The position numbers were made by a program, and so were the translations under genes. This document shows, one piece after another, positions 23,282-43,388 of a stretch of 64,000 nucleotides of DNA. Each line of letters opens with the position of its first letter. Position 1 is the stretch's first letter. The notes below the pieces were generated by a model. It was not told the DNA's origin. It searched no databases and worked only from the letters and a program-made list of their open reading frames with translations. Source of the stretch: a virus. The stretch spans positions 8,404 to 72,403 of the IMG/VR virus record IMGVR_UViG_3300042904_000405; one strand, 5' to 3'.

Positions 23282-24168
23282 CACGTTCCTCCTGTTGTCA
23301 CTACGAACCCGCTCTTGCCGATGAGCTGGCGGGCCCGACCCTTTGCGCTCAGGTCTCCGATGACGCCCTCCTGGAACATCCACTCGTCGGTGAGGTCGGC
23401 GTCGACGACGTTGGCCCAGTAGACGTTGCCGCCGAGCCAGATCGGCTCCGGCTTCTGTCCCTTGCGACGAGACGTGACGACAGCGACTGAACCGCCGCGC
23501 TCCACGAAGTCGAAGACGGCGTGCTGATCGCTGTTCTCGTTCCAGCTGTACGCCAGGCGGTAGGTCGCGCCGACCCAGCCGTCGGTGTCGAGGACGAACG
23601 GGTCCTTCGTGTACCCGTAGCTGAGCACCCGCGTCCCGAGCGTGTCGCCGTTGGTGAGCGACGGCAGGATCAGATCCCACCGGACGTCGCTATTGACGTT
23701 GGGCCGGAACAGGATGTTCGTCTTCCAGTGCCGGGTCCAGGCGGCTTCCAGCTCCCAGCCCAGCAGGAAGGCGAACGCCCGCGGCTGCTCGCAGAGGAAG
23801 TCCACCTTCGCCCGGCGCGCCTCCTTGACCGCTTCGAAGGAGCCGTTCCCGTTGTCGAGGACGCACACCTTCTGACAGTCGCCGGCATGCGGGCAGGCGT
23901 TGACGATCAGGCCACGCTTGACCCGTGTCGTCGTGTGCTGAAGCGTGAGCCCGTAGCTCGGCACCTTGCCCTTCAGCAGCTTGTCGTTGTCGGCCGGCCA
24001 GGTGAGCAGTCGCAGGGCGGGACCGGTGAAGCCTCGCTTCTCCCGGTACGCCTGGTACAGCTTCATCGCCAGGCCTCGTTCGTGCCTGCTGGCATGCGAG
24101 GCTCCCCGGACGAAGTACTCGTCCATGGCCGCCGCGTGCGGCAGCAGGTGGTCAGTCAGCGTCTTCAT
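23281..24168 (-). CDS. Gp88-like protein (Cys-motif, radical-SAM-related phage family)
   Basis: CPHAGDCQKVC, FRPNVNSD, YGYTK, LAYS, VAVV, VVDAD.TD, L.AKG pattern. Confidence 0.7.
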   Translation of the reverse strand: MKTLTDHLLPHAAAMDEYFVRGASHASRHERGLAMKLYQAYREKRGFTGPALRLLTWPADNDKLLKGKVPSYGLTLQHTTTRVKRGLIVNACPHAGDCQKVCVLDNGNGSFEAVKEARRAKVDFLCEQPRAFAFLLGWELEAAWTRHWKTNILFRPNVNSDVRWDLILPSLTNGDTLGTRVLSYGYTKDPFVLDTDGWVGATYRLAYSWNENSDQHAVFDFVERGGSVAVVTSRRKGQKPEPIWLGGNVYWANVVDADLTDEWMFQEGVIGDLSAKGRARQLIGKSGFVVTTGGT

Positions 24169-29575: not shown

Positions 29576-29967
29576 GCGGGCCGCTCCAGGAGGAGGGGGC
29601 CCGCGGCGAGCCAGTAGACGTCGGGGTCGTCCCACCACAGCTCCGGGTCGTCGGTGACGTGGTAGGTCCCGGCGAACCGGGGGAGCAGGTCATCCCGCTC
29701 TTGCATCAGGAGCCTCCGTTCCTGTCCCGAGACAGCCCCCGGAGAGCACGCCCTAGAGCGTCCCTCCGTTCACTGCCTCTCACAATGTCATCGACCGTAG
29801 ACCGGTCGATTCGTCACACCCCCCTGGGGTGGGGGGAGGGGGCCGGGCCGGCGGGTAGGGCTGTTTCTAGCCCCCGGCGGGCCGGGCGTATGTCGATTTC
29901 CTGCCCCCCCTAGGGGGGAGGGGGGTGGGGGGTGGCCCCCCCTGGGAGCCCCCCGCACACTCGCCGG

Positions 29968-30131
29968 CGAACCCCTGTTCGGGAACGTCTGTTCGACGAA
30001 CCCCTGTTCGGGTACACGCGTTCGGGTACGGGTGTTCGACGATCGAGTGTTCGGTCGCCGGGCAAACCCATGTTCGTACGATCGAGTGTTCGATCGCCGG
30101 GGGATCAAGCGTTCGTACGATCGTTCGTTCG
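29968..30131. repeat. Array of ten 14-bp SOS-box-like units, N(G/A)(A/T)(A/T)C-N4-GTTCG
   Basis: GTTCG at 29977, 29991, 30006, 30020, 30034, 30049, 30072, 30088, 30111, 30127; two units are perfect CGAAC-CCCT-GTTCG. Confidence 0.85.
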
Positions 30132-30324
30132 ATTAGCAAGCGATGCCCCATCGCTCCATCGCTCCGTGCGATCGCTCGCACGCTCCGATGCTCCGATGCC
30201 CCATCGCTTGCCTCTCACTATGTGGACGCGGGCAGACCGGTCTATCTGTCACGGGGACCGTACGGTTGTGCTAGCTTCCCCGTTGGGCGCACCACGCGTC
30301 CCACTCACAACGGAGGGTACGAAC

Positions 30325-32079: not shown

Positions 32080-33536
32080 GCGGCGTGGCGTACATGGCAC
32101 GGAACCGGGAGACGGCGGACAAGGTGACGGAGATCCTCGAGCTGCCAGAGGGCAGGTGGGTCGACGTCAGGGTCGAGCTGGAGACCGACGAGCCGGCGGT
32201 GGCCGTCGTCAGGCTGCTGCTCTCCTCCGCTCAGCTCCACGCCCTCGTCGACGCCTGCACGGAGGTGGTGTGATGGATGACTACATCGTCGTGACGACCC
32301 CCGTGCCGAACCCGGACTACGACCCGAACGCCACCTGGCCGTCAGTGAACCTGCAGGAGGAGGTGTTGGCCTTCCAGATCTGTGTGCTCACAGGCGCAGG
32401 GTGGTACACGCCTCTCGCCATGGAACCTCTCCCGTACAGCCAGCTCGGCCTCGCCCTCCACATCGTCAAGGCGCTCAACGCCTACGCCGAACCGACCACC
32501 GAGGAGGAGGGGTCATGAGGGTCATCCTGGCGGTGACCTCCCTCGTGATCATCTTCGTGACCTCGAGGGACGACTGGTTCTGGCAGGGACTCGCGGCGAT
32601 CGCCGCCGCGGTGCTGGCCTTCACGGCTGACTCCCCTGTCGACGCAGGGATCTGGGGGATCGTGGCGGGGCTCGGGGCCTGCGACGCCCTGCTCGCGCTG
32701 GAAGGGCACCGGCTCAGGCGGGTGCGACGGATGCGGCACCTGCGGACCGGGCTGGAGCGCCGGGGGCGGTAGGCATTGCGCAGCTGACTCTCGTGGCGTA
32801 CGATGAGGGTCGGACATAGCATACGAAAGGCCACTCCATGGACGAAGAGATCTACAACGAGGCGACGGCGGAGTTCTACTGCGCAATCGCCCTCCAGACG
32901 GGCAGGTGCGCCGAGCTGCTCAACGGGCTCGCCAACGGCGGGGCGGTGACGCTCGACGTGAGCACCACCCCGCCGGGCTTCGCCTTCATCTCGGCCGAGC
33001 AGGTCGCACAGCTGGCGGAGGGTCTGTGATGGCCCTCGAAGAACTGCAGAGGCTGTTCCCGATCGGGACGCGGTGGATGATGACGGCGAACGACCGGACA
33101 CGTGAAGCCACGGTCGTCGGCTACGAGGCGGATCCGGTCGACGGCTGGGTGTGGGTCGTGGTCCGCAGCGCCGAAAACCTCGGGGCCTTCCACTATGAGT
33201 CGAACGTCTGGGACAGGATCGCCGAACCGACACCGTGCCCAATCGTCGAGGCCGAGAGGTTCCGCATCGTGGAGGATCCCGAGGCGAGTCCGTACCGGAC
33301 GCTGTCGCGGGGCCTCAACGGGACCCCGATCACCCTCCACCCGGCCGACGCCAACCTCGCCTCGCTCGGCTCGTGGGCGCCGTACACGTGGGAGAACCGG
33401 TGATCTGGTACCTCATCCGCTGGCTGGTCTCCCTGGCGTTCCGCCGGATCGGGTTCATCGACGACGTCGACGTGGAGGTGACGCGGTGATCTGGAGGGTC
33501 ATCAGGTGGCTCAAGCGAAACCTGGCGACGTGGTGA
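32076..33536 (+). other. Run of small hypothetical genes (includes membrane protein 32515-32772, 32838-33029, 33029-33403)
   Basis: Coupled plus-strand ORFs. Confidence 0.55.
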
Positions 33537-34054
33537 CGCGCCCCTACCGGGTGCTGTTCTGCGGCAGCCGCAACTGGTCGGCCCCTGAGCCGATCCGCAT
33601 CAAGCTGGAGGGGATCCTGGAGAAGCATCCCAACGTTGAGCTGGTCCACGGCGCTGGCCGCGGCGCCGACATGATCGCCGGCGCGGTCGCTGAGTCCCTC
33701 GGCGTGCCGGTCCACGCCTTCCCAGCCGACTGGGACGGAGAAGGGCTCGGCGCGGGGCCGTTGCGCAACCAGCGCATGCTCGACTTCGGCGTCGACGCCA
33801 TCTACGCCTTCAAGGAGGGCTTCATCCGCACGATGGACAGAGGCGGGACCGAGGACATGGTCAGACGGGGCTTGGAGGCCGGGGTGCCGGCTCAGATCAT
33901 CGACACGGTCACCGTCACGACGGGGACGATCATCCACCAGGCCATCGGGCGCAACAGCGAGGGCATGACGACGAGCTGTGGCCTCGAGCGCCAGCACTAC
34001 TCGACGTGCTCGGGCTTCGCCTCCATGGTGACGTGCGAGGAGTGCCTGACATGA
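33533..34054 (+). CDS. SLOG/YspA-like (DUF2493-type) protein
   Basis: VLFCGSRNW, LVHGAGRGAD, FPADW, AGPLRNQRML, GGTEDMV. Confidence 0.85.
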   Translation: MTRPYRVLFCGSRNWSAPEPIRIKLEGILEKHPNVELVHGAGRGADMIAGAVAESLGVPVHAFPADWDGEGLGAGPLRNQRMLDFGVDAIYAFKEGFIRTMDRGGTEDMVRRGLEAGVPAQIIDTVTVTTGTIIHQAIGRNSEGMTTSCGLERQHYSTCSGFASMVTCEECLT

Positions 34055-34667: not shown

Positions 34668-35282
34668 ATGAAACGACTCCCAATCCTGGCGGTGGCGCTC
34701 CTCGCGCTCGGCACGCTCACGGCGTGCGTCCCGATCCCTGGTCTGTCGAACAACGGCTTCACGAAGGCCCGCTGGCCGAACCGCACGTCGGTCAATATGG
34801 CGAACCCGTCGAACGTCAACGGCTACAACATGGTCGAGTCGGTCAACGAGTGGAACTTCACCGCTGGGTGGCGCATGATCGACGTGTACCCGCAGAATGA
34901 CGCCTACGGCAACGCCAACGCTGACATCAGGTTCTCGCCGATGTCGCCCATCATCGACGGGCGAGGCGGCCGCCACGCCATGTGGGTGCAGGAGTTCCTG
35001 AACGCTGACCGCAGCGTCCACCACTGCGTCATCCACTACGACCCCGAGTTCCTGGCCCAGGTCCCGGAGATGCGCCATCCCGACGTGATCTCTCACGAGG
35101 TCGGCCACTGTCTCGGCTGGTACACGACCGGCGACATCAACGGGCTCTGCGATCCTGGCTACCAGGGCGTCATGTCGTACTGCCGCTTCAACAGCTACCA
35201 ACCGTGGTGGGAGAACCACCCAGCCCCGTGGTGGGGCGCTGACGACCAGACGATGCTGGCCAACGCTGGATACCGGTGGTGA
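34668..35282 (+). CDS. Lipoprotein zinc metallopeptidase (metzincin-like)
   Basis: MKRLPILAVALLALGTLTA-C lipobox; HEVGHCLG and a Met-turn-like GVMSY. Confidence 0.8.
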   Translation: MKRLPILAVALLALGTLTACVPIPGLSNNGFTKARWPNRTSVNMANPSNVNGYNMVESVNEWNFTAGWRMIDVYPQNDAYGNANADIRFSPMSPIIDGRGGRHAMWVQEFLNADRSVHHCVIHYDPEFLAQVPEMRHPDVISHEVGHCLGWYTTGDINGLCDPGYQGVMSYCRFNSYQPWWENHPAPWWGADDQTMLANAGYRW

Positions 35283-35611
35283 GCGAAGGCTCCCAGATCG
35301 TTGTTCGCCTCCCGGACGTGGAGACGGGCCAGCTCGAGGAGCTGTGCGAGCACTTCGGGCTGACCCGCTCCCAGATGGTGCGCCGGATGATCCACCTGGC
35401 GCACTCAAAGCTCCCGTCGCGGTCTGACCCCGCCGAGCTGAAGGGTCCGTCGAAGCTCGCCAAGCAGCTGGAGGAGCGAGCCGCTGTGAGGATCCGCAAC
35501 CGGCGCTCGGGCCTGCAGAAGGTGGAGCCGGCGGCCTGTGAGCGCCACCAGTGGACGGCGCTCGGCGACGGTCTCGACCAGTGTCAGGTCTGTTTGGCCA
35601 TGAAGGGCTGA
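35279..35611 (+). CDS. Ribbon-helix-helix protein with C-terminal Cys/His motif
   Basis: IVVRLP....QLEELCEHFGLTRSQMVRRMI. Confidence 0.7.
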   Translation: MSEGSQIVVRLPDVETGQLEELCEHFGLTRSQMVRRMIHLAHSKLPSRSDPAELKGPSKLAKQLEERAAVRIRNRRSGLQKVEPAACERHQWTALGDGLDQCQVCLAMKG

Positions 35612-35625
35612 GGTACCATCCGGCC

Positions 35626-35808
35626 ATGGCAACCCCGACCAACATCGTCATCGTCATGGAGCCCGGCGAGCTGCACTTCGCCGTGGTGAACCGCGACAAC
35701 TACGAGACGCTCCTCCACTCGGAGGACTACGACTCGATCTCCAACCGCAACCGGGCGGCCCGCGACCTCAAGAAGCTCACCGGCTGGCCCACCGTCGACC
35801 ACACCTGA
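35626..35808 (+). CDS. Small hypothetical protein (DUF1508-like)
   Basis: HFAVVNRDNYETLLHSEDY....NRNRA; leaderless -10. Confidence 0.55.
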   Translation: MATPTNIVIVMEPGELHFAVVNRDNYETLLHSEDYDSISNRNRAARDLKKLTGWPTVDHT

Positions 35809-35913
35809 CCCCCACTCGCCCCCCCGGAGTGCCGACAGGACTCGCGAGGGGGAGGCCAGCTACACCGGGACAGAGGTTACGAGGCCCGGCGTGGGGGCGT
35901 GTCTGGCCTTACG

Positions 35914-36357
35914 TCAGTTGAGCGCTGCAGAGAGGAAGGCCGGGCGCTGGCTGGACGGGTGCACCTGCATCGACAGATTGCGCGCCTCGTCCTCGCCGAG
36001 CACGACGATCGTGGGCATCTGATCGAGCAGTGCTTCCCAGTCGATCTCATCCATTGCGCCCTCCTTGGCAGAAGTGAAGGAAGCCGAGCCAGCGCTTCAA
36101 GCGGATCAGCTTGTCGCACCGCGGGCACCGGAACCAGTCACCGGAGACGGCTTCGATTCGGCCCTCGGGTTCGTCTGCGGCGTTCAAGACAACAGATCCT
36201 TCAGCTTCGTGATCTCGTCGTAGGCCTTCTTGACCTTGCCGCCGTGACGTTCGACGAGCTGGTTCCAGTCGACGAAGACGGACAGCGGCGAGGCCGAGAT
36301 CTCGCCGATCTCGGTCAGCCCTTCGAACTGGGTGTTGATGTCGTCTTCGTTGCTCAC
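35914..36357 (-). other. Three small hypothetical genes (35914-36054, ~36047-36187, 36184-36357)
   Basis: Coupled minus-strand ORFs. Confidence 0.5.
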
Positions 36358-36968
36358 TTCGTCTCCGGGAGTCCGCCGCTAGGAGCGGCTGTCGTTGGGG
36401 TCGTGTCCGCGGGCCACGCCACCGTTGAACGGGGAGGCTCCACGGAGCAGTTGACGCAGCCTCGGGGCACGAGGGGGGCGGTCGTCGAAGAGACGTCGGT
36501 ACCACGAGGGACGGTTGTCCCAGGCGAAGTCGATGAAGTCGAGGAGGGCGTCGGCTGCGTCGTCGAGGTCTCGGGCACGGTCACCTGGGTCACCGGCGTG
36601 CAGTCCTGACACACGGTCGTCGATGTCGTGGAGTCTGGCACGGTCGTCGTGGTCCCGTCAGGCGGGTCGCACTCGCCGAGCGTGTCCTGCTCGTGGCCGG
36701 CCTGGGTGGTGCCGTTCTCGTTGAAGTGACCCCCGTTGCCGTAGACGGCCTGCGGCGGCAGGTGCAGCGTGACGTAGTTCGCCGGGTCGTCGGCCCGGCC
36801 AGCGACGTGACAGATCGTGATCTTGTCGTTGTTCCCAGCGGCAGGCACGGCCCCACCCGTCGGAGCGAAGAGCCAGATGGCCGCGGCACCCCCGACGGCG
36901 AGGACGCCTGCGATGAGTGGGGCGGCGTGGGCCCGCTTGAGGGGCCTCTGGTTCTCTTGGATGTCCAC
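36354..36968 (-). CDS. Secreted/membrane protein with KITICH..G module and Thr-rich tail ending GGLPETK
   Basis: N-terminal TM segment; DKITICHVAG...GH...HEQDTLGEC; TACGAT 6 nt before the GTG. Confidence 0.7.
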   Translation of the reverse strand: MDIQENQRPLKRAHAAPLIAGVLAVGGAAAIWLFAPTGGAVPAAGNNDKITICHVAGRADDPANYVTLHLPPQAVYGNGGHFNENGTTQAGHEQDTLGECDPPDGTTTTVPDSTTSTTVCQDCTPVTQVTVPETSTTQPTPSSTSSTSPGTTVPRGTDVSSTTAPLVPRGCVNCSVEPPRSTVAWPADTTPTTAAPSGGLPETK

Positions 36969-37003
36969 TCGGCGATCGTATACGACGCCGCCTAGCATGT
37001 CCA

Positions 37004-37019
37004 GCGAACGAGCGTTCGC
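37004..37019. promoter_or_regulatory. Perfect SOS-box-like palindrome between divergent promoters
   Basis: GCGAAC-GAGC-GTTCGC matches the Gram-positive LexA box CGAAC-N4-GTTCG. Confidence 0.6.
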
Positions 37020-37062
37020 CGGCGGTGGACAAAGCTGCTATGCCACCTCTACGGTGGCTGCT

Positions 37063-37224
37063 ATGAGCGAGGCCAGCGAGAACTCCCGCCCGGGCAAGGA
37101 GGGCAAGATCCAGTCCTTCTACGTGCGCCACGAGATCCTGGCCAAGCTCGGCGCCCTAGCCAAGGAGCGCGGCGTCAGCCGCAACCGCATGCTGACTGTG
37201 CTCGTCGAGGAAGCCGATCAGTAG
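37063..37224 (+). CDS. Arc/RHH-like DNA-binding protein
   Basis: SFYVRHEILAKLGALAKERGVSRNRML. Confidence 0.7.
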   Translation: MSEASENSRPGKEGKIQSFYVRHEILAKLGALAKERGVSRNRMLTVLVEEADQ

Positions 37225-37556
37225 CACTGCCACCCTTGGTCGACCTTGGCGAGCGAGCCGTCGACGTAGTCCTCGGACACGGCGATCTGCTCGGCCTTGG
37301 TCGCCTGCCACGGCTGGTCGGCGTAACGCTCACCGCCGAGGCGGTCCCAGTAGTAGTGGTTCCACATCAGGCCGCCGGAGAACGTGCCGTGGCTGTTCGT
37401 GACGGGCCGGTGGGACCAGTTGCCACCTGACTCACATTCGGCGATCGCATTCCAGTCGACGGTCCATGTCTGTGACCGCTGTGGCTGGCACTGGCCGGCG
37501 CAATCGGTGAGCAGAGCCACCGGCAAGGCTGCGATCGCGAAGAGACGAGTGTTCAT
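37218..37556 (-). CDS. Secreted resuscitation-promoting-factor (Rpf)-like transglycosylase
   Basis: WNAIAECESGGNW, FSGGL, W...GG..YA..P.QATKAEQIAV match the Rpf domain; N-terminal signal peptide. Confidence 0.85.
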   Translation of the reverse strand: MNTRLFAIAALPVALLTDCAGQCQPQRSQTWTVDWNAIAECESGGNWSHRPVTNSHGTFSGGLMWNHYYWDRLGGERYADQPWQATKAEQIAVSEDYVDGSLAKVDQGWQCY

Positions 37557-37601
37557 TGGTTGGTTCCTCCATGGTTGCCGCCCGGCTTCGGATGCGACTG
37601 T

Positions 37602-38152
37602 CTAGCAGCCAGCGCCCTTCTTCCAGAACGCGGCCTTCACCGTCGGGTAGGTGCCGTTGAGGCTCATCTCGTAGGACTGCTCCATGTAGCACGTCCGCCT
37701 GACGGCATCCCGGGGGTGGCAGTACGGCACGCCGCCGATCGACGCCTCTTGCTCGGGCATCACCCGGCCGCAGCGCCCACAGATGCGCTCAACCACCGTT
37801 CACCCGCTCACGGATCATCTCGACGACGCGGGGCTCGCTGAACAGCCAGACGAACACCTCGGCCCACTGCTGCTTCGGGAACGTGGCCCGCAGCTGCTCG
37901 AGCTTCAGGTGAAGGTCCGGGTCGGCGCGGAAGGTGACGACGGGGCGCTCAGCCATCTTCGTCCCAGTCGTATGGCTTCCAGTTGTCCGCTGACTCCGGC
38001 CGCCACTCGATCTCTTCGCGCCGCCACTCCTTGTACAGCATGTCGCCGGACCGCATGCGGGTGACCGCCTCACGGCCATCGCTGGTCTCACACCACAGCG
38101 AGCCGTCGGGGGCGAGCACCCGGAACCAGCGTCCGCGTTTCCAGTCAGGCAC
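37602..38152 (-). other. Three small genes (37602-37796; 37789-37956 RHH-like; 37949-38152)
   Basis: Coupled ORFs; VTFRADPDLHLKLEQL is RHH-like. Confidence 0.55.
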
Positions 38153-39165
38153 CGGTCACCACCTTCCATGTTCCGTCCGGGCTGACCCGCACGATGGTGT
38201 AGCTCTGAGCGAACAGCGATGTGCGCGCCGTCTCGGGGTCGTTCGCTCCCCACCACAAGCGGCCGTCGCGATCAACCACGTAGAACATGTCGGCGACCTG
38301 TTTCGGCGGTTCGGTAGCGGGGTCAGGCATTGGCGATCGCCGCCCTCAGAGCGTGGACGAGTGACGAACCCTCGCCCGTGCTCACTACGCCGCGCTTGTC
38401 CCCAATCACCACCGCGGTTCCGTGAGTCGTGATGGCGTGCGGTATCCGCACCGTCGCTCCGCTGCCGAGCACGACGTCGAGTAGATCGTCAGTTGTGAGC
38501 AGGTCGGCACAGTCTGGACAGAGCGCGAACCTCAGAGGGATGAGGTCCGAGCAGCGGCAGGGGCTATCGGACGGCGGTTCGTTAGCTGGTGCTGGCATAG
38601 CCGTCCATCCATCGCTCGGCGATTCGGTAGCAAGGGTCCAGACAGAAGTGCCAGACCTGTACGTCATCGGCGCACCATCCCATGTCGGCCAATGGTCGGC
38701 GCGTGCCGCAGATGGCGCAGATGAACGGCGGTTCGATGGCAGGCGCAGGCGGCGGACTGCTCGGCCACGGCGGGCACTTGCTCACGTCGGTCCGCGGGTT
38801 GCTAGCCATCGGCCGATTCTTCGCACGGGCGACAGATGCCGTCAATCAGTTGCTCCCGCGACTCGCAACGCTCACAGACACCGCTGCGGCCCTCGCGGAA
38901 GTAGCGACGAGTGTTTGGTGGGAGGTGGGCGAGGGGGTCGCTATTGAACGGCGGTTCGTTAGTCACGGTCGGCCTCCAGCCATCGCCCGATGGCTGGGAG
39001 TCCGACTCGGACGACGGGCTCATCGGTGTCGAGCACGGCTCGCGCCTCGTCGCTGATGGACGGCGGTTCAGACGCCTGATCGCACGGCCACGGTTCGCCG
39101 CACGTCGCACATCGGACGATGGTCGCCGGGCGATGGCGATTGAACGGCGGTTCATCAGCGGGCAC
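38145..39165 (-). other. Five EPP micro-genes (38145-38330, 38323-38598, 38582-38809, 38802-38966, 38959-39165)
   Basis: MPDPATEPPK, MPAPANEPPSD, ..AIEPPFI, VTNEPPFN, MPADEPPFN..ASEPPSI; mostly Cys-rich. Confidence 0.6.
38300..39160 (-). repeat. EPP-motif cluster 2: six co-oriented copies plus one degenerate copy
   Basis: Plus-strand core CGGCGGTTC at 38304, 38572, 38726, 38949, 39061, 39145; CGGCGATTC at 38617. Confidence 0.9.
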
Positions 39166-39400
39166 GTTGGGCCTCCAGCGTCATCTCAAAGAGCGCCCGG
39201 CGGCTCTGATCAAGGGCGTCGTGCTTGGTCCAGAAGCGACGGTGGAGGATCTCGGGTTCGGGGTTCCCGTGGGTCCACACACAGACGCACGAGGTCCAGG
39301 GCTTCCACTTCCACCAGCTGTGGTGGAGCAGGAAGTCGACCCAGCCGTCGGCGATCTCGTATCGGCCTATCAGCTCGTCGCGCTCTTCGAATCCCCGCAT
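39155..39400 (-). CDS. Hypothetical protein, first gene of the operon carrying cluster 2
   Basis: TAGCAT 6 nt upstream of the ATG on the minus strand. Confidence 0.6.
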   Translation of the reverse strand: MRGFEERDELIGRYEIADGWVDFLLHHSWWKWKPWTSCVCVWTHGNPEPEILHRRFWTKHDALDQSRRALFEMTLEAQRAR

Positions 39401-39656
39401 GCCGACATGCTATGCACAGATCAGCTGCGTATACAAGCCCGGAACGCCAACGGCCGGCCCCGTCGTCGGAGGGCCGGCCGTCAGGCGGGTGGACATCGCT
39501 CCCGTTTGGCTACTGGCACAGTAACGGCCAGAGCCCCCGCCGCACAAGACCAGCGGGCGAGCATGTCTTGCGCAGCGAGGGCTCAGATGGCACGATGACG
39601 GACGCCAATCACGTCGGGGCTCAGCGTACCCGACGCCAGAAGCGAAGGGAAGAGCC

Positions 39657-40049
39657 ATGTACCCGTTCAAGATCTACGAGTGCGCCTACTGCGGCGATGA
39701 GGCCACCGAGAACGATCACGTCACGCCCCGCTCGCGCGGCGGCAGACTGACCGTCCCATCTTGCGCCCCTTGCAACCGGTCCAAGTCCCGCAAGGACGCC
39801 GACGAATGGCTGGCGCATCAGCTGATCCGCGACGCCCGCTGCGATATCGGTGACGATGCGAGCCGCCGTCTGGTGGAGATGTTGCTCCGCCTCCCGGCCC
39901 TCGTCGACGCTGGGATCATCGACATGGGCTGCGTCGGCGTCGAGCTGGCGTCGGCGCGAGAGGAGGCGCTCCAGCTGGCGCTCAACCTCGAGCTGGCGCT
40001 GACGACCCTCAACGCTGCCGTTGAGAATGCTCGGGCGCTGGCCTCATGA
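39657..40049 (+). CDS. HNH endonuclease
   Basis: CAYCG....DHVTPRSRGG...VPSCAPCNRSK. Confidence 0.85.
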   Translation: MYPFKIYECAYCGDEATENDHVTPRSRGGRLTVPSCAPCNRSKSRKDADEWLAHQLIRDARCDIGDDASRRLVEMLLRLPALVDAGIIDMGCVGVELASAREEALQLALNLELALTTLNAAVENARALAS

Positions 40050-40747
40050 GGATCCGCACCGCCCAGATCGCGATCACCCCGATCTGGGTGATCAAGCACC
40101 CCGACGTCTACGGCAACGCCACACGCATGGCGGTGTACGCCGGCCTGCAGGTTGTCGCCTTCGAAGCGGGCGACACCGAGTGGCGCTCCGACCGCGAGTT
40201 GGCTGTCAGCGTGTCCGAGGTCGTCGGCATCGGAGACGAGGCGTGCCGGAAGCATCTCGCCGCGCTGAAGGCCATCGGGGCGATCGCCAAGACCGTCGAT
40301 GGCGACATCTACCTCGCCCAGGATGACCCCGAACTGGGTATCGGCGTGGGTATCCAGGAACCCAAAGTTGGGTCTGGTGGTACCCAAACCGACGAACGCA
40401 CTACCACTACAGAGATAGAGAAGAGAGAGAGACGCGCGTCTGGGTACGACGGGACCCCTGGATTCAACGAGTTCTGGTCGCTCTACCCGAGAGGCGAGGG
40501 CAAGCCGGCCGCCCACGACGCCTTCAAGGCAGCGGCCAAGAAGGACGAGGTGGGAGTGATCCTGGCGGGCCTTGAAGTCTGGGTCGACTACTGGCACCGT
40601 CGCGGCGAGCCTCAGTTCATCCCGTACGCCCAGAAGTGGCTGAAGGGAGAGAACTGGAACGCCTGCCCGCCCCCGGTGCGCTCTCAGGCTCCGAAGCTGT
40701 CATCGGGTGGCTCAGCGATCGCTCGACGCATGGAGAGGACGTCATGA
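40046..40747 (+). CDS. Putative replication initiator
   Basis: N-terminal wHTH-like region, low-complexity linker, C-terminal FNEFWSLYPR..GK..A..AF...FIPYAQKWL...W domain. Confidence 0.75.
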   Translation: MRIRTAQIAITPIWVIKHPDVYGNATRMAVYAGLQVVAFEAGDTEWRSDRELAVSVSEVVGIGDEACRKHLAALKAIGAIAKTVDGDIYLAQDDPELGIGVGIQEPKVGSGGTQTDERTTTTEIEKRERRASGYDGTPGFNEFWSLYPRGEGKPAAHDAFKAAAKKDEVGVILAGLEVWVDYWHRRGEPQFIPYAQKWLKGENWNACPPPVRSQAPKLSSGGSAIARRMERTS

Positions 40748-41367
40748 CCGAGGAAGAGGCCCTGAAGGTGCTCACGCCGCTGGCGGTGGCGTTCCCATTC
40801 GGGGATGACCAGGTCGAGCTGTGGGTGGAGAAGCTCCGATCGCTGTCGAATGCGTTCATCGCGATGAAGACGACGAACTCACTCATCGACGAGCACGAGG
40901 GATTGCGCGCCCCGGCGTGGGCAGTGTTCAAGAAGCAGTACGACCGGTTCCATGCGCGGTGGGAGGAGGAGGAATCCGAGCGCCGCCTGGCCCTGGAGGC
41001 GCCGCAGGGGCGTCTCGCCGGGATGATCTCACCCAAGGAGGGCCGTCAGATCGCCGCCGCGGCCTACGCCAAGCAGTACAAGCGCAAGCCGCCGGCGAAC
41101 ATCTTCGACCTGCCGGACCCCGAGTTCGTCCCGAGGGCCACATCGGAGGAAGTCGAGACCGCCCTGCAGGTGATCCGCGGGGGCTATGACCACGACGGGA
41201 TGACGTTCAGCAAGTACACCGACGTGCTCAAGGCCTTCGACGGCCACCAGCTCACGGCGCGCGCCGCCGTCAAGACACTGGAGGACTCCCGGCAGCTCGT
41301 CCATCGGCCCGATGGCACGCTGATCCTGCTGCGGGTGCGTACGATCGCGGGGGATGAGCGCAGTTGA
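40744..41367 (+). CDS. Possible helicase loader/replication accessory protein
   Basis: MTEEEALKVL..LAVAFP N-terminus and position after the initiator. Confidence 0.5.
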   Translation: MTEEEALKVLTPLAVAFPFGDDQVELWVEKLRSLSNAFIAMKTTNSLIDEHEGLRAPAWAVFKKQYDRFHARWEEEESERRLALEAPQGRLAGMISPKEGRQIAAAAYAKQYKRKPPANIFDLPDPEFVPRATSEEVETALQVIRGGYDHDGMTFSKYTDVLKAFDGHQLTARAAVKTLEDSRQLVHRPDGTLILLRVRTIAGDERS

Positions 41368-41857
41368 GGTCGTCGGCTACCGGATCTGCGCCTCTGGGGT
41401 GTGTGATCGGCTCGTTCTGGAACATGTTGCGGTCCGATCGGGCGGATACTGCCCCGATTGCTGCTCCCGAGGGGTCGCAGAGGCCGCCAAGACCGTCCTC
41501 GTCGCCCTCGAGGGGGGTCGATACCCCGTCAAGTCCGCCAAGCCCGCCCAGACAGCCCGGAATCGGCGTCAGTACCTCCGTCGGAAGGCGGATCCGCGTC
41601 GAATCGAGGCGCGCAAAGCGCAGGAGAAGGCGAAACGGGCTGCGATGAGGCGGTTGCGGGCGTTCTGCCCCGAGTTGTACGACCTACTGCTCGCCGATGA
41701 GCGAATGAAGCGGGGATTGGACCCGTTCCCCCTCGAAACGGCCGTTCTGCCGGGATCAGGGGTCGACGGCTGGGAGACGATGGACGCCACGGCGTTCTAC
41801 CATGCGCTGGCGCGTCAGGAGCAGCAAACCGATGGCCCTTCCGAACCCACGCCGTAG
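41354..41857 (+). CDS. Hypothetical protein (Cys motifs, basic)
   Basis: Coupled ORF overlapping the portal start. Confidence 0.55.
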   Translation: MSAVEVVGYRICASGVCDRLVLEHVAVRSGGYCPDCCSRGVAEAAKTVLVALEGGRYPVKSAKPAQTARNRRQYLRRKADPRRIEARKAQEKAKRAAMRRLRAFCPELYDLLLADERMKRGLDPFPLETAVLPGSGVDGWETMDATAFYHALARQEQQTDGPSEPTP

Positions 41858-43388
41858 CACGGCGACTCTCACACGCCCAACCGGGCAAGAGTCGACGTAC
41901 GCGGCGCGTGAGATCAGGATCTCCGACCCGAACGAGGCCAGGTACCTCCACACGCTCGTTTCGGCCACGAAGAACCACTTCGGCTCGTCGCACAACCCGT
42001 GGGACTGGTTCGAGAAGCTCGGCGAGGTCCACTACGCCGTTGCTCGCGCTGCTCGCATCGCCGGCTACACCGAGCTGTTCGCCGAGTACGAGCAGAAGCC
42101 CGGGGTCTGGGTCCGTCGGGACACCGGACGCGAGGCGGCCATCGTCGACGGGATCTACTCGCCGTTCGGCGGCGTGCGAGGCCTGATCTCGCGCTACTTC
42201 ACGCTGATGAAGGTTCCCGCCGACTCTCACCTGATCCGGGTCAAGAACGGCGGCGTCTACGACGGCTACCACTTCATGTCGGTCGATGAGATCGATCAGG
42301 CGAGCCTGGACGAGGGAGCACGCAGGACGGGGGGCGCGACCGAGTTCAGGTGGCGCACCCTGCCGATCTCCGACGAGGGCAACACCAGCCTGCGCACCGT
42401 CGCCGCCGAGGACTACCTCGGCCGGGTGTGGGCCCCGTCTGACCGCTGGGTCGACCTCCCGGACTCCCCGCTGTTCGCCCTCGACACCGAATGCGAAGTC
42501 CTGCACCTGTCGACGCTCTCGCTCCGGGCGAAGCTGGCCTCCCGCTTCGCTTCGGCGGGGATCCTGTTCATCCCGCAGTCGATGCGCTCGGCGGCGTGGG
42601 CGCACCCCGACAACGGGGTCAACGAAGGCGTCTCCGACGCGGCCAGGATCGACGACGTCCTCGACTCGCTGATCAAGAGCATGACTCGCAACCAGCTCGA
42701 CTACGAGTCGGCGAAGTTCTGGCTGCCGCTGTTGGTCTCCGGCCCCGACGACGTCGGCGAGAAGATCAAGCACATCCTCATCGACAGCGAGGTGTTCGAG
42801 ACCGATCTCTCGCTGCGCCGGGAGATGATCGATCGCATCTTCACCGGCCTCGACATCCAGGCCAACGCGACGAAGGGCGTCGGCGAGGAATCGTCCCGCT
42901 TCAACGCCTGGTCGGTATCCGACGACGAGCTGCGCCTCGTGGCCAAGCCCGACGTCGAAGCTGCGTGCTGGGCGTTCACCCGCCTCATCCTGCACAAGCA
43001 GCTCAAGGAGGCTGGCGTCGACGACGCGCAGATCGTGAAGTGGCGCGTCGGGTTCGACATGAACCGCGCCGCATCGAAGACGAACCAGCAGGACGACGCC
43101 CGCCAGATCGAGGACCGCGGCGGCCTGAAGCTGGCGACGCTGCGCTCGGTCAGTGGCTTCGACGAAGACGATGCGCCCGAGGAGCAGGAGCAGATCCGCT
43201 GGATGGGCCGCCAGACGCGCAACCCGTACCTCGGCCTGTTCACCGGCAAGAAGATCAGCGAGATCGACTGGGACATGGTCCTGAAGTTCTCAGGCAAGAG
43301 CGGCCCGACCGGCAAGGCGGGCGACGACCCCACGAAGGGTCCGGGAGTCGGTAACCCGGGCAGCCCAGACACCCCACCGGAGGACTGA
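41832..43388 (+). CDS. Portal protein
   Basis: W.WFEKLGEVHYAV, LASAGILFIP-like SRFASAGILFIP, LRREMIDRIFTGLD, NAWSVSDDE resemble cluster-B-type actinophage portals; first gene of the head module. Confidence 0.8.
   Translation: MALPNPRRSTATLTRPTGQESTYAAREIRISDPNEARYLHTLVSATKNHFGSSHNPWDWFEKLGEVHYAVARAARIAGYTELFAEYEQKPGVWVRRDTGREAAIVDGIYSPFGGVRGLISRYFTLMKVPADSHLIRVKNGGVYDGYHFMSVDEIDQASLDEGARRTGGATEFRWRTLPISDEGNTSLRTVAAEDYLGRVWAPSDRWVDLPDSPLFALDTECEVLHLSTLSLRAKLASRFASAGILFIPQSMRSAAWAHPDNGVNEGVSDAARIDDVLDSLIKSMTRNQLDYESAKFWLPLLVSGPDDVGEKIKHILIDSEVFETDLSLRREMIDRIFTGLDIQANATKGVGEESSRFNAWSVSDDELRLVAKPDVEAACWAFTRLILHKQLKEAGVDDAQIVKWRVGFDMNRAASKTNQQDDARQIEDRGGLKLATLRSVSGFDEDDAPEEQEQIRWMGRQTRNPYLGLFTGKKISEIDWDMVLKFSGKSGPTGKAGDDPTKGPGVGNPGSPDTPPED

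Follow-up and report, generated by a model that had tools for sequence, protein, structure and literature searches.

In integrons, small, unrelated and mostly promoterless cassettes are arrayed in one orientation with a repeated site, attC, a folded sequence of 57-141 nucleotides (nt) at the 3' end of each cassette. The SOS boxes bound by LexA in Mycobacterium tuberculosis have the consensus TCGAAC(N4)GTTCGA, and boxes within annotated coding regions occur (PMC3381160); the LexA motif reported for Streptomyces venezuelae reads tCGAAC-N4-GNNCGa (PMC9380542). Stoperators of Cluster A mycobacteriophages are described as asymmetric 13-bp sites, genome-wide and mostly intergenic, that lie in many one-orientation copies within transcription units near gene boundaries and are bound by a monomeric phage repressor so that elongation is stopped (PMC9283540, PMC6550527). 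Cluster K phages carry start-associated sequences (SAS; GGGATAGGAGCCC), a short one-orientation repeat of the non-structural region that sits over the ribosome site, 3-7 bp upstream of the start codons of different gene families (PMC3203893), and in T4-type phages promoter-early stem-loop elements (PeSLs), intergenic units of promoter and stem-loop terminator, flank non-essential small open reading frames (ORFs) in hypervariable regions that are shuffled by recombination between the copies (PMC2839356). Here we describe two arrays of small genes in a 64-kb stretch of DNA (the window; IMG/VR record IMGVR_UViG_3300042904_000405, a single contig of 72,403 bp whose ends overlap by 18 bp, bases 8404-72403) from a tailed soil phage, in which a repeated coding word, GAACCGCCG, is read as Glu-Pro-Pro (EPP), mostly just after the start codon.

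The module formed by this word and its leader has the complete set of defining features of none of SOS boxes, stoperators, SAS or PeSLs. It resembles an SOS box in its CGAAC/GTTCG dyad arms set 4 bp apart (nine of 12 sites lie within two mismatches of the 16-mer box), but here the spacer is an invariant CGCC and the sites follow start codons in frame, six per kb inside operons. Its many one-orientation copies within transcription units near gene boundaries recall stoperators, whereas the present sites are dyads, coding, confined to two arrays and common to unrelated phages; as for a dedicated immunity repressor, the genome encodes one candidate binder, a LexA-domain protein that is missing from all 10 other contigs searched. 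With SAS it shares shortness, a single orientation, a location at gene starts in the non-structural region and the variety of gene families behind it, yet the present repeat differs in sequence and, at 1-10 codons past the start, is part of the translated gene. PeSLs are likewise repeats bordering non-essential small ORFs in shuffled regions, but the repeat in this phage is coding and has no promoter or terminator consensus. Integron arrays are matched in orientation, in the small unrelated cargo and in the repetition of a site, and differ in that this phage has no integrase and its site is 12-24 nt at the 5' end of the gene.

The word GAACCGCCG occurs 13 times on the two strands of the window, against 1.49 expected (standard deviation 1.11, largest 5) from 100 dinucleotide shuffles, none of which reaches 13, and the remaining 8.4 kb of the genome holds zero further copies. 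Twelve copies form two minus-strand arrays of six each, 12947-13925 (array 1) and 38304-39153 (array 2), and the 13th, at 23489 on the plus strand, has no match in its flanks. A first-pass annotation made from the letters alone had placed six perfect array-2 cores at 38304, 38572, 38726, 38949, 39061 and 39145 and a degenerate one at 38617, with 23489 as the single other core match; all of these were recovered at exactly those positions. The degenerate copy, GAATCGCCG, is in the frame of ORF 38323-38598 but 5' of the ATG (38598) that probably starts it; it also lies, out of frame, over the 3' end of ORF 38582-38809. Eleven perfect copies continue as GAACCGCCGT(T/C)C, the exception at 38304 being the 9-mer alone; a search with the 12-mer GAACCGCCGTTC at up to one mismatch returned 11 matches, all on the minus strand and ending in TTC (six) or TCC (five), against 0.63 expected. 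Alignment of the copies yields a consensus of about 24 nt, GCTACC-GAACCGCCGTYC-RATAGC.

All 12 array copies are read as E-P-P in one orientation, in small minus-strand ORFs whose stops and starts overlap or abut. Four of the six array-2 sites lie 3-6 codons past a GTG or ATG start that has a GGAGG- or GGATGG-like ribosome site, and the other two (39058 and 38723) are internal, the former with no nearby in-frame start; in array 1 the copy at 13696 is internal with an in-frame ATG before it, and ORF 13280-13570, within the array, carries no site. At 39145, 38949 and 38572 the stop codon of the upstream ORF (TGA of ORF 39155-39400, TAA and TAA, respectively) sits 1 nt 5' of the core. In the module a ribosome site and a start codon are followed by 2-5 more leader codons and by GAACCGCCGT[T/C]C. 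One leader, ATGCCTGACCCC, precedes both 13917 and 38304, with 25 of 27 nt identical between the two. Beyond the modules the arrays are not alike: tblastn and blastn between them find similarity over 11-27 nt only, all of it at modules, which rules out tandem duplication and agrees with the proposal that two loci use the same site with non-homologous genes. The arrays are neither a product of chance nor a tandem duplication.

Conservation acts on the DNA word and not on the peptide. In 18 long ORFs of this phage Glu is written GAA in 16% of cases and Pro is written CCG in 56%, so the EPP tripeptide should be written GAACCGCCG 5% of the time; it is so written in 12 of 12 array copies. In the arrays of other contigs, described below, 18 of 20 single-base variants of the 9-mer (counted as sites, not as independent events) change a residue, giving GGA (Gly) eight times, CTG (Leu) five, GAT (Asp) three, and CAA (Gln) and TCG (Ser) once each; only two of the 20 are synonymous, compared with seven of the 27 possible single changes, and there is thus no hint of selection for the residues. 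The gene for the single-stranded DNA-binding protein (SSB) serves as a natural control: in four of four actinobacterial genomes it ends in DEPPF*, written with four different codon sets. The module is a clear case of a coding stretch in which the nucleotides, rather than the residues, are under selection.

These data bear directly on a function of the peptide or of its translation, which we consider quite improbable. In such a scheme the small proteins would dock on partners of SSB through an N-terminal (D/N)EPPF that mimics the SSB tip, or else Pro-Pro after a rare codon would cause a pause dependent on elongation factor P that tunes expression of the coupled genes. In its favour are the shared DEPPF ending of the actinobacterial ssb genes, the mycobacterial SSB tail peptide given as FGGGDDEPPF (PMC7847540), the many leaders of the form M-(S/T/A)-(D/N)-E-P-P-F, variant first codons that still end in A or T (GGA, GAT, CAA) and sense RNA that is unstructured near the sites. 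However, the motif is N-terminal or internal and never at a free C-terminus (the one C-terminal copy ends ...EPPSDSP*), the Phe position is Ser in five of the 12 copies here and Lys in one (38304), and over 41 non-seed sites T and C stand at 56:41 at the Phe/Ser base. GPP, QPP and EPL variants are tolerated, the last (five sites) breaking Pro-Pro; there is hardly any synonymous variation, in contrast to the SSB control; and the core stands 1-10 codons from the start rather than at a fixed distance. SSB mimicry as the function is opposed by the N-terminal placement, by the alternation of F and S and by the invariance of the codons; the likeness of (D/N)EPPF to the SSB tip may be coincidental or may reveal where the word came from.

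The word also heads unrelated genes, again in arrays, on at least 12 further contigs from uncultured high-GC phages or metagenomes. Of the 76 and 9 loci obtained by pattern scans of IMG/VR, most are single chance matches; nine IMG/VR contigs (G001-G009) have same-strand arrays of 2-7 sites within ~1 kb, nearly all near one contig end, and a scan of Joint Genome Institute (JGI) metagenomes gave L126 (eight sites in 2.4 kb), L127 (six sites) and L128 (four sites). The genomes of 185,579 species contained no array and 25 loci with one exact match each, among them L094, which is the 3' end of an ssb gene (L132), and L095, which has 2-3 sites and lacks a phage context. A blastn search with two modules (42-45 nt) against 50,697 GenBank phage records returned chance-level matches only (best E 0.2), and a full-text literature search, which included the EPPF phage motif and actinobacteriophage repeat motifs, found the motif nowhere described; GAACCGCCG as a query retrieved primer lists only. 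Separately, the pattern GCTACCGAACCGCCGTYC matched once among viral contigs, in a contig of GC 0.43, and was set aside as chance.

An in-frame start lies within 12 codons upstream of 57 of 68 array sites, compared with 41% of random in-frame positions. The distance from start to core ranges from 1 to 10 codons with modes at three (22 sites; leaders M-S-N, M-T-D, M-A-D) and six (17 sites; M-P-D-P-A-T, M-P-E-P-G-I). Phages that otherwise do not align have leaders in common, nucleotide identity between them being confined to islands of 17-34 nt at the modules. In G003 the module also heads what we read as enzymes, a DPPY-type methyltransferase and a PAPS-reductase-like protein. All-against-all blastp found no protein family common to the 10 contigs compared; the widest, present in eight, is probably a lysin-like amidase.

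The cargo is unrelated between the two arrays and among ten whole contigs, apart from two weak pairs, and several comparisons suggest that leaders and bodies reassort, and array interiors turn over, at the word, a pattern that is partly shown by these data. The first-pass annotation had proposed to check whether segments between motifs stand beside changing neighbours, and three settings show such changes. First, both flanks are common to the related small phages G004 and G006 (67-77% nucleotide identity), whose four-site interiors are alike only at modules. Second, ORF 12935-13090 has a homologue in L126 with 78% nucleotide identity over 113 nt (window 13058-12946); the homology reaches only to the 3' motif copy and a different gene follows there, while the leader MT(S/N)SPT(E/D)PPF that heads this ORF here stands on a different body in L126. 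Third, homologues of cassette 38145-38330 (76%, 58%, 51% and 48% identity) have no leader, and one of them begins M-T-P-P-K-Q-V, which puts the graft joint within CCGCCG and explains why site 38304 is a 9-mer only, the native N-terminus of the gene body taking the place of the 3' half of the motif. Internal copies, such as that at 13696, look like fused cassettes. In L126 a 229-aa ORF (L126:45-734) has four motif copies 36-43 codons apart (DPPF, EPPY, GPPF, QPPS), a Cys-rich segment standing behind each, and resembles a fusion of four cassettes.

Exchange of this kind invites a reading in which recombination is the primary function of the word, the identity itself being selected and the likeness to an SOS box coincidental; we regard it as a serious possibility, though an unlikely one. 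Homologous or annealing recombination of host or phage could then carry a gene flanked by the word from one co-infecting phage to another, or from one locus to the other, with frames preserved. Identical modules on unrelated cargo, the identity islands, the kept flanks and non-homologous interiors of G004 and G006, the homology that ends at a motif copy in L126, the travelling leader, the joint inside CCGCCG and fused cassettes with in-frame internal copies all suit it, as does the invariant asymmetric centre of the word, appropriate to a crossover region. Yet cassette bodies, bar the two weak pairs, are common neither to the two loci nor to the 10 whole contigs, a word of 12-24 nt offers little length for homologous recombination, this genome has no recognisable recombinase or annealing protein, and the metagenome contigs show no structural variant with a well-supported breakpoint. 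The likeness to an operator would also have to be accidental: by our calculation an arbitrary word matches GAAC-N4-GTTC at about 1.5e-5 per 12-mer, before other known motifs. In sequencing run X3, near-identical contigs flank ~37120-40650 with little cover between, and we did not use them as evidence; four joints in contigs of the sequencing runs touch motif copies (38318>38716, 38737>38946, 38750>36669 and 39071>38926), and these, with short sides of 20-36 letters in single contigs, probably come from motif-bearing DNA of other phages.

The strongest form of the first-pass proposal, a dedicated trans-acting site-specific recombinase that inserts and excises cassettes at the core as in integrons, is very improbable. 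Single-orientation arrays of promoterless small cassettes, inverted arms about an invariant asymmetric centre as in recombinase core sites, and hypervariable array interiors between conserved flanks all recall such a system. The 72.4-kb genome, however, estimated to be 95% complete, has 0 matches to tyrosine (PF00589) and 0 to serine (PF00239) recombinases, which weakens the case; no protein family is present in all array-bearing contigs; and the sites, 12-24 nt without covariation, are not attC-like. Nor do they appear to resemble Xer dif sites, in which the centre is AT-rich. An integron-like mechanism is not supported. What is supported of a trans-acting mechanism with a shared cassette pool is that the site is common to other phages and that neighbours change; a dedicated recombination machine was not found, and neither was a cassette common to both loci or an exchange between them.

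It is likewise highly improbable that the motif has no function and survives only from common descent, the small genes being paralogues or sharing a 5' end that was duplicated recently. Paralogous neighbours do exist (38145-38330 and 37949-38152 here, and two cassettes of G001), and many Cys-rich cassettes share EPPF-x-C-x2-C. Against this, the 12-mer is 88-100% identical across unrelated phages from different samples while their flanks and bodies are no longer recognisably alike, the putative enzymes of G003 stand behind the module as well, and the paralogue 37949-38152 lacks it.

The dyad offers a plausible regulatory reason for the conservation of the site. GAAC-CGCC-GTTC is a dyad with one asymmetric central pair, extended by its flanks to (A/C/T)CGAAC-CGCC-GT(T/C)C(G/A)A, and the fourth site of array 2 reads TCGAAC-CGCC-GTTCAT. 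In two soil actinobacteria the boxes upstream of lexA are TCGAAC-AGAT-GTTTGA and TCGAAC-AGCG-GTTTGA. With up to two mismatches the 16-mer SOS box has 21 matches in the window against 3.15 expected, nine of them array sites, six in an intergenic cluster at 29967-30132 and one at 37004-37019. Within the core, conservation is lowest at positions 1 and 10, the latter (T/C) lying in the NN of the Streptomyces motif. The dyad pairs show no covariation, and fold z-scores at the 12 sites range from -2.6 to +2.9 on the sense and from -2.1 to +1.4 on the antisense strand; a hairpin of RNA or single-stranded DNA was rejected, as neither strand folds better than shuffles, and a dyad of this kind fits a protein site on duplex DNA. 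Pairing with 16S rRNA was also considered and rejected: three actinobacterial 16S genes have no complementary site with up to two mismatches, and the duplex energy equals that of shuffled motifs.

The phage itself encodes a protein that could bind such a site. Two genes upstream of array 1 lies a gene for an 82-aa protein formed of a LexA DNA-binding domain alone (PF01726, E 3.4e-12, 46.4 bits, cut-off 23.7) that aligns with residues 12-75 of solved LexA and has no S24 protease domain. By inference, this protein is a candidate for binding the array sites of the phage; as it lacks S24 self-cleavage, it could sit on SOS boxes and be insensitive to RecA. Viral contigs contained no close relatives of it. 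The intergenic cluster, three of whose half-sites form back-to-back CGAAC-N4-GTTCG dyads, uses the same half-site as the arrays and may be linked to them. It lies in a ~500-bp noncoding region (29706-30260) between divergent operons that is probably the main control region or origin.

The reading that we tentatively favour, while rating it at less than an even chance, is that the word is an in-frame operator for a LexA-type protein, carried in a harmless N-terminal extension, and that recombination at the word is a by-product. The EPP arrays are series of accessory genes that are unrelated and each begin with one portable gene-start module, and on this model the word of the module, (C)GAAC-CGCC-GT(T/C)C(G/A)A, in frame as Glu-Pro-Pro-Phe/Ser, would be bound by a dimeric LexA-type protein, generally the host LexA and here possibly also the 82-aa phage protein without its cleavage domain. 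Where genes overlap and leave no intergenic space, an N-terminal extension that is short, flexible and rich in proline would accommodate an operator without harm. With several sites in a row, a single repressor would keep the accessory block shut by roadblock or occlusion, as at stoperators, and release it on DNA damage. The word seems moreover to act as a microhomology joint because the same 12-24 nt recur at the same in-frame position in many genes of many phages, and recombination there may be a consequence of the conservation rather than its purpose.

Several observations weigh against this operator model. The spacer is CGCC in 12 of 12 sites here and its positions are as conserved as the arms (88-100% over 41 non-seed sites), whereas boxes upstream of lexA differ in their spacers (AGAT, GGAT, AGCG); a symmetric dimer leaves an invariant asymmetric centre unexplained. 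The arms themselves vary (GGAC in eight sites, GTCC in ~40%), and besides the nine sites close to the 16-mer one has three mismatches and two have five. The sites lie 1-10 codons inside ORFs of coupled operons and not at promoters, and the M. tuberculosis study lists 13 intragenic motif occurrences without LexA binding (PMC3381160). PF01726 is absent from all 10 other contigs searched (nine with arrays and the single-site L078) and SOS-like boxes outside the arrays are at chance level in nine array contigs, so the LexA-domain gene and the intergenic cluster are peculiar to this phage. Finally, the outer dyad T(-4) R(-3) A(-2) is in part the out-of-frame stop codon of the upstream ORF.

A broader version, in which the word is a universal in-frame adaptor of high-GC soil phages that combines host-LexA control with cut-and-paste of genes between phages and between loci by short homology and leaves frames intact, strikes us as unlikely; if true, it would be an integrase-free gene-cassette system that carries regulation with it. 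Unknown genes stem chiefly from the accessory regions of phages, and little is understood of their regulation and exchange; one coding word of 12-24 nt common to unrelated uncultured actinophages gives a handle on both. It predicts a common regulator, for which LexA is a testable candidate, and it marks places of gene swapping, so that mosaic boundaries are predictable from sequence.

Table 1. Positions of the arrays, their sites and ORFs, and other features, in window coordinates.
Feature	Position	Strand	Description
Array 1	12947-13925	-	six sites; 12-mer starts 13914, 13789, 13696, 13258, 13061, 12947
Array-1 ORF	13809-13943	-	small, Cys-rich
Array-1 ORF	13567-13809	-	small, Cys-rich
Array-1 ORF	13087-13287	-	small, Cys-rich
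Array-1 ORF	12935-13090	-	small, Cys-rich
LexA DNA-binding-domain protein	14227-14475	-	82 aa
SOS-box-like dyad cluster	29967-30132	.	~11 (T/C)GTTCG half-sites, 14-15 bp spacing
Rpf-like transglycosylase	37218-37556		
Array-2 coupled small ORFs	38145-39165	-	n=5
Array-2 ORF	38959-39165	-	68 aa
Array-2 ORF	38802-38966	-	54 aa
Array-2 ORF	38582-38809	-	75 aa
Array-2 ORF	38323-38598	-	91 aa
Array-2 ORF	38145-38330	-	61 aa
Array 2, site 1	39142-39153	-	GAACCGCCGTTC; codons 5-8 of ORF 38959-39165, V-P-A-D-E-P-P-F
Array 2, site 2	39058-39069	-	GAACCGCCGTCC; inside ORF 38959-39165, Q-A-S-E-P-P-S-I-S
Array 2, site 3	38946-38957	-	GAACCGCCGTTC; codons 4-7 of ORF 38802-38966, V-T-N-E-P-P-F
Array 2, site 4	38723-38734	-	GAACCGCCGTTC; from codon 26 of ORF 38582-38809, A-I-E-P-P-F-I-C
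Array 2, degenerate copy	38617-38625	-	GAATCGCCG
Array 2, site 5	38569-38580	-	GAACCGCCGTCC; codons 7-10 of ORF 38323-38598, M-P-A-P-A-N-E-P-P-S
Array 2, site 6	38304-38312	-	9-mer GAACCGCCG only; codons 7-9 of ORF 38145-38330, M-P-D-P-A-T-E-P-P-K-Q-V
HNH endonuclease	39657-40049		
Probable tape-measure gene	from 57645		very long ORF; our reading

The phage genome has a G+C content of 67%, encodes DNA methyltransferases and a portal-like protein (41802-43388) with 24-26% identity to actinophage portals, and most of its genes have no family assignment. Array 1 ends a long leftward operon (29706 to 12435), and array 2 opens a short leftward one (39400 to ~35900) that diverges from the HNH and structural genes. 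The ORFs of both arrays have a third-position G+C content of 0.71-0.80 (0.71-0.79 in array 2), against 0.82-0.92 in their neighbours and mostly 0.82-0.95 in the rest of the genome; recent arrival or weak selection would fit these low values (38145-39165 and 12935-13946). Searches of Pfam and PHROG with the array-2 proteins gave zero family matches, a search with cassette 38323-38598 returned zero candidate homologues, a search of JGI metagenome contigs with a cassette alignment found nothing, and viral contigs yielded no relatives of the protein encoded at 40046-40747. Megablast of 37000-41000 against the 50,697 phage records gave no match, and Rfam, searched over 35000-41000 with E up to 1, gave 0. 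Between 35800 and 39800 there are two promoter-like and no terminator-like matches, none within the repeat, the sole promoter-like match within array 2 being at 38845-38816. The other, at 37003-36975 on the minus strand, precedes ORF 36354-36998, and directly upstream of it stands a perfect dyad, GCGAAC-GAGC-GTTCGC, at 37004-37019.

The paralogous ORFs 37949-38152 and 38145-38330, adjacent on the minus strand, have a DG-x-LW core in common, and only the latter has an EPP leader; in a protein library this small domain is repeated 5-16 times in large proteins of 430-1740 aa. The noncoding region at 29706-30260 also contains palindromes of G/C runs (CCCCCCTGGGGTGGGGGG...) and a 44-nt direct repeat at 29774 and 30209 (75% identical). 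The rightward early operon includes a YspA/SLOG-family protein (PF10686, E 3.5e-17) at 33506-34054 (+) and a ribbon-helix-helix protein at 35276-35611 (+). Among the array-bearing contigs, G001, G004, G006 and G009 (L107-L111) are only 15-25 kb long and are rated 99-100% complete by the estimate of the collection; by eye they appear to have in common a lysin-like gene and large putative structural genes, G001 has in addition an integrase-like gene, and in all four the EPP array lies at most 2.5 kb from one end. They are possibly satellites, or temperate actinophages of unusually small size.

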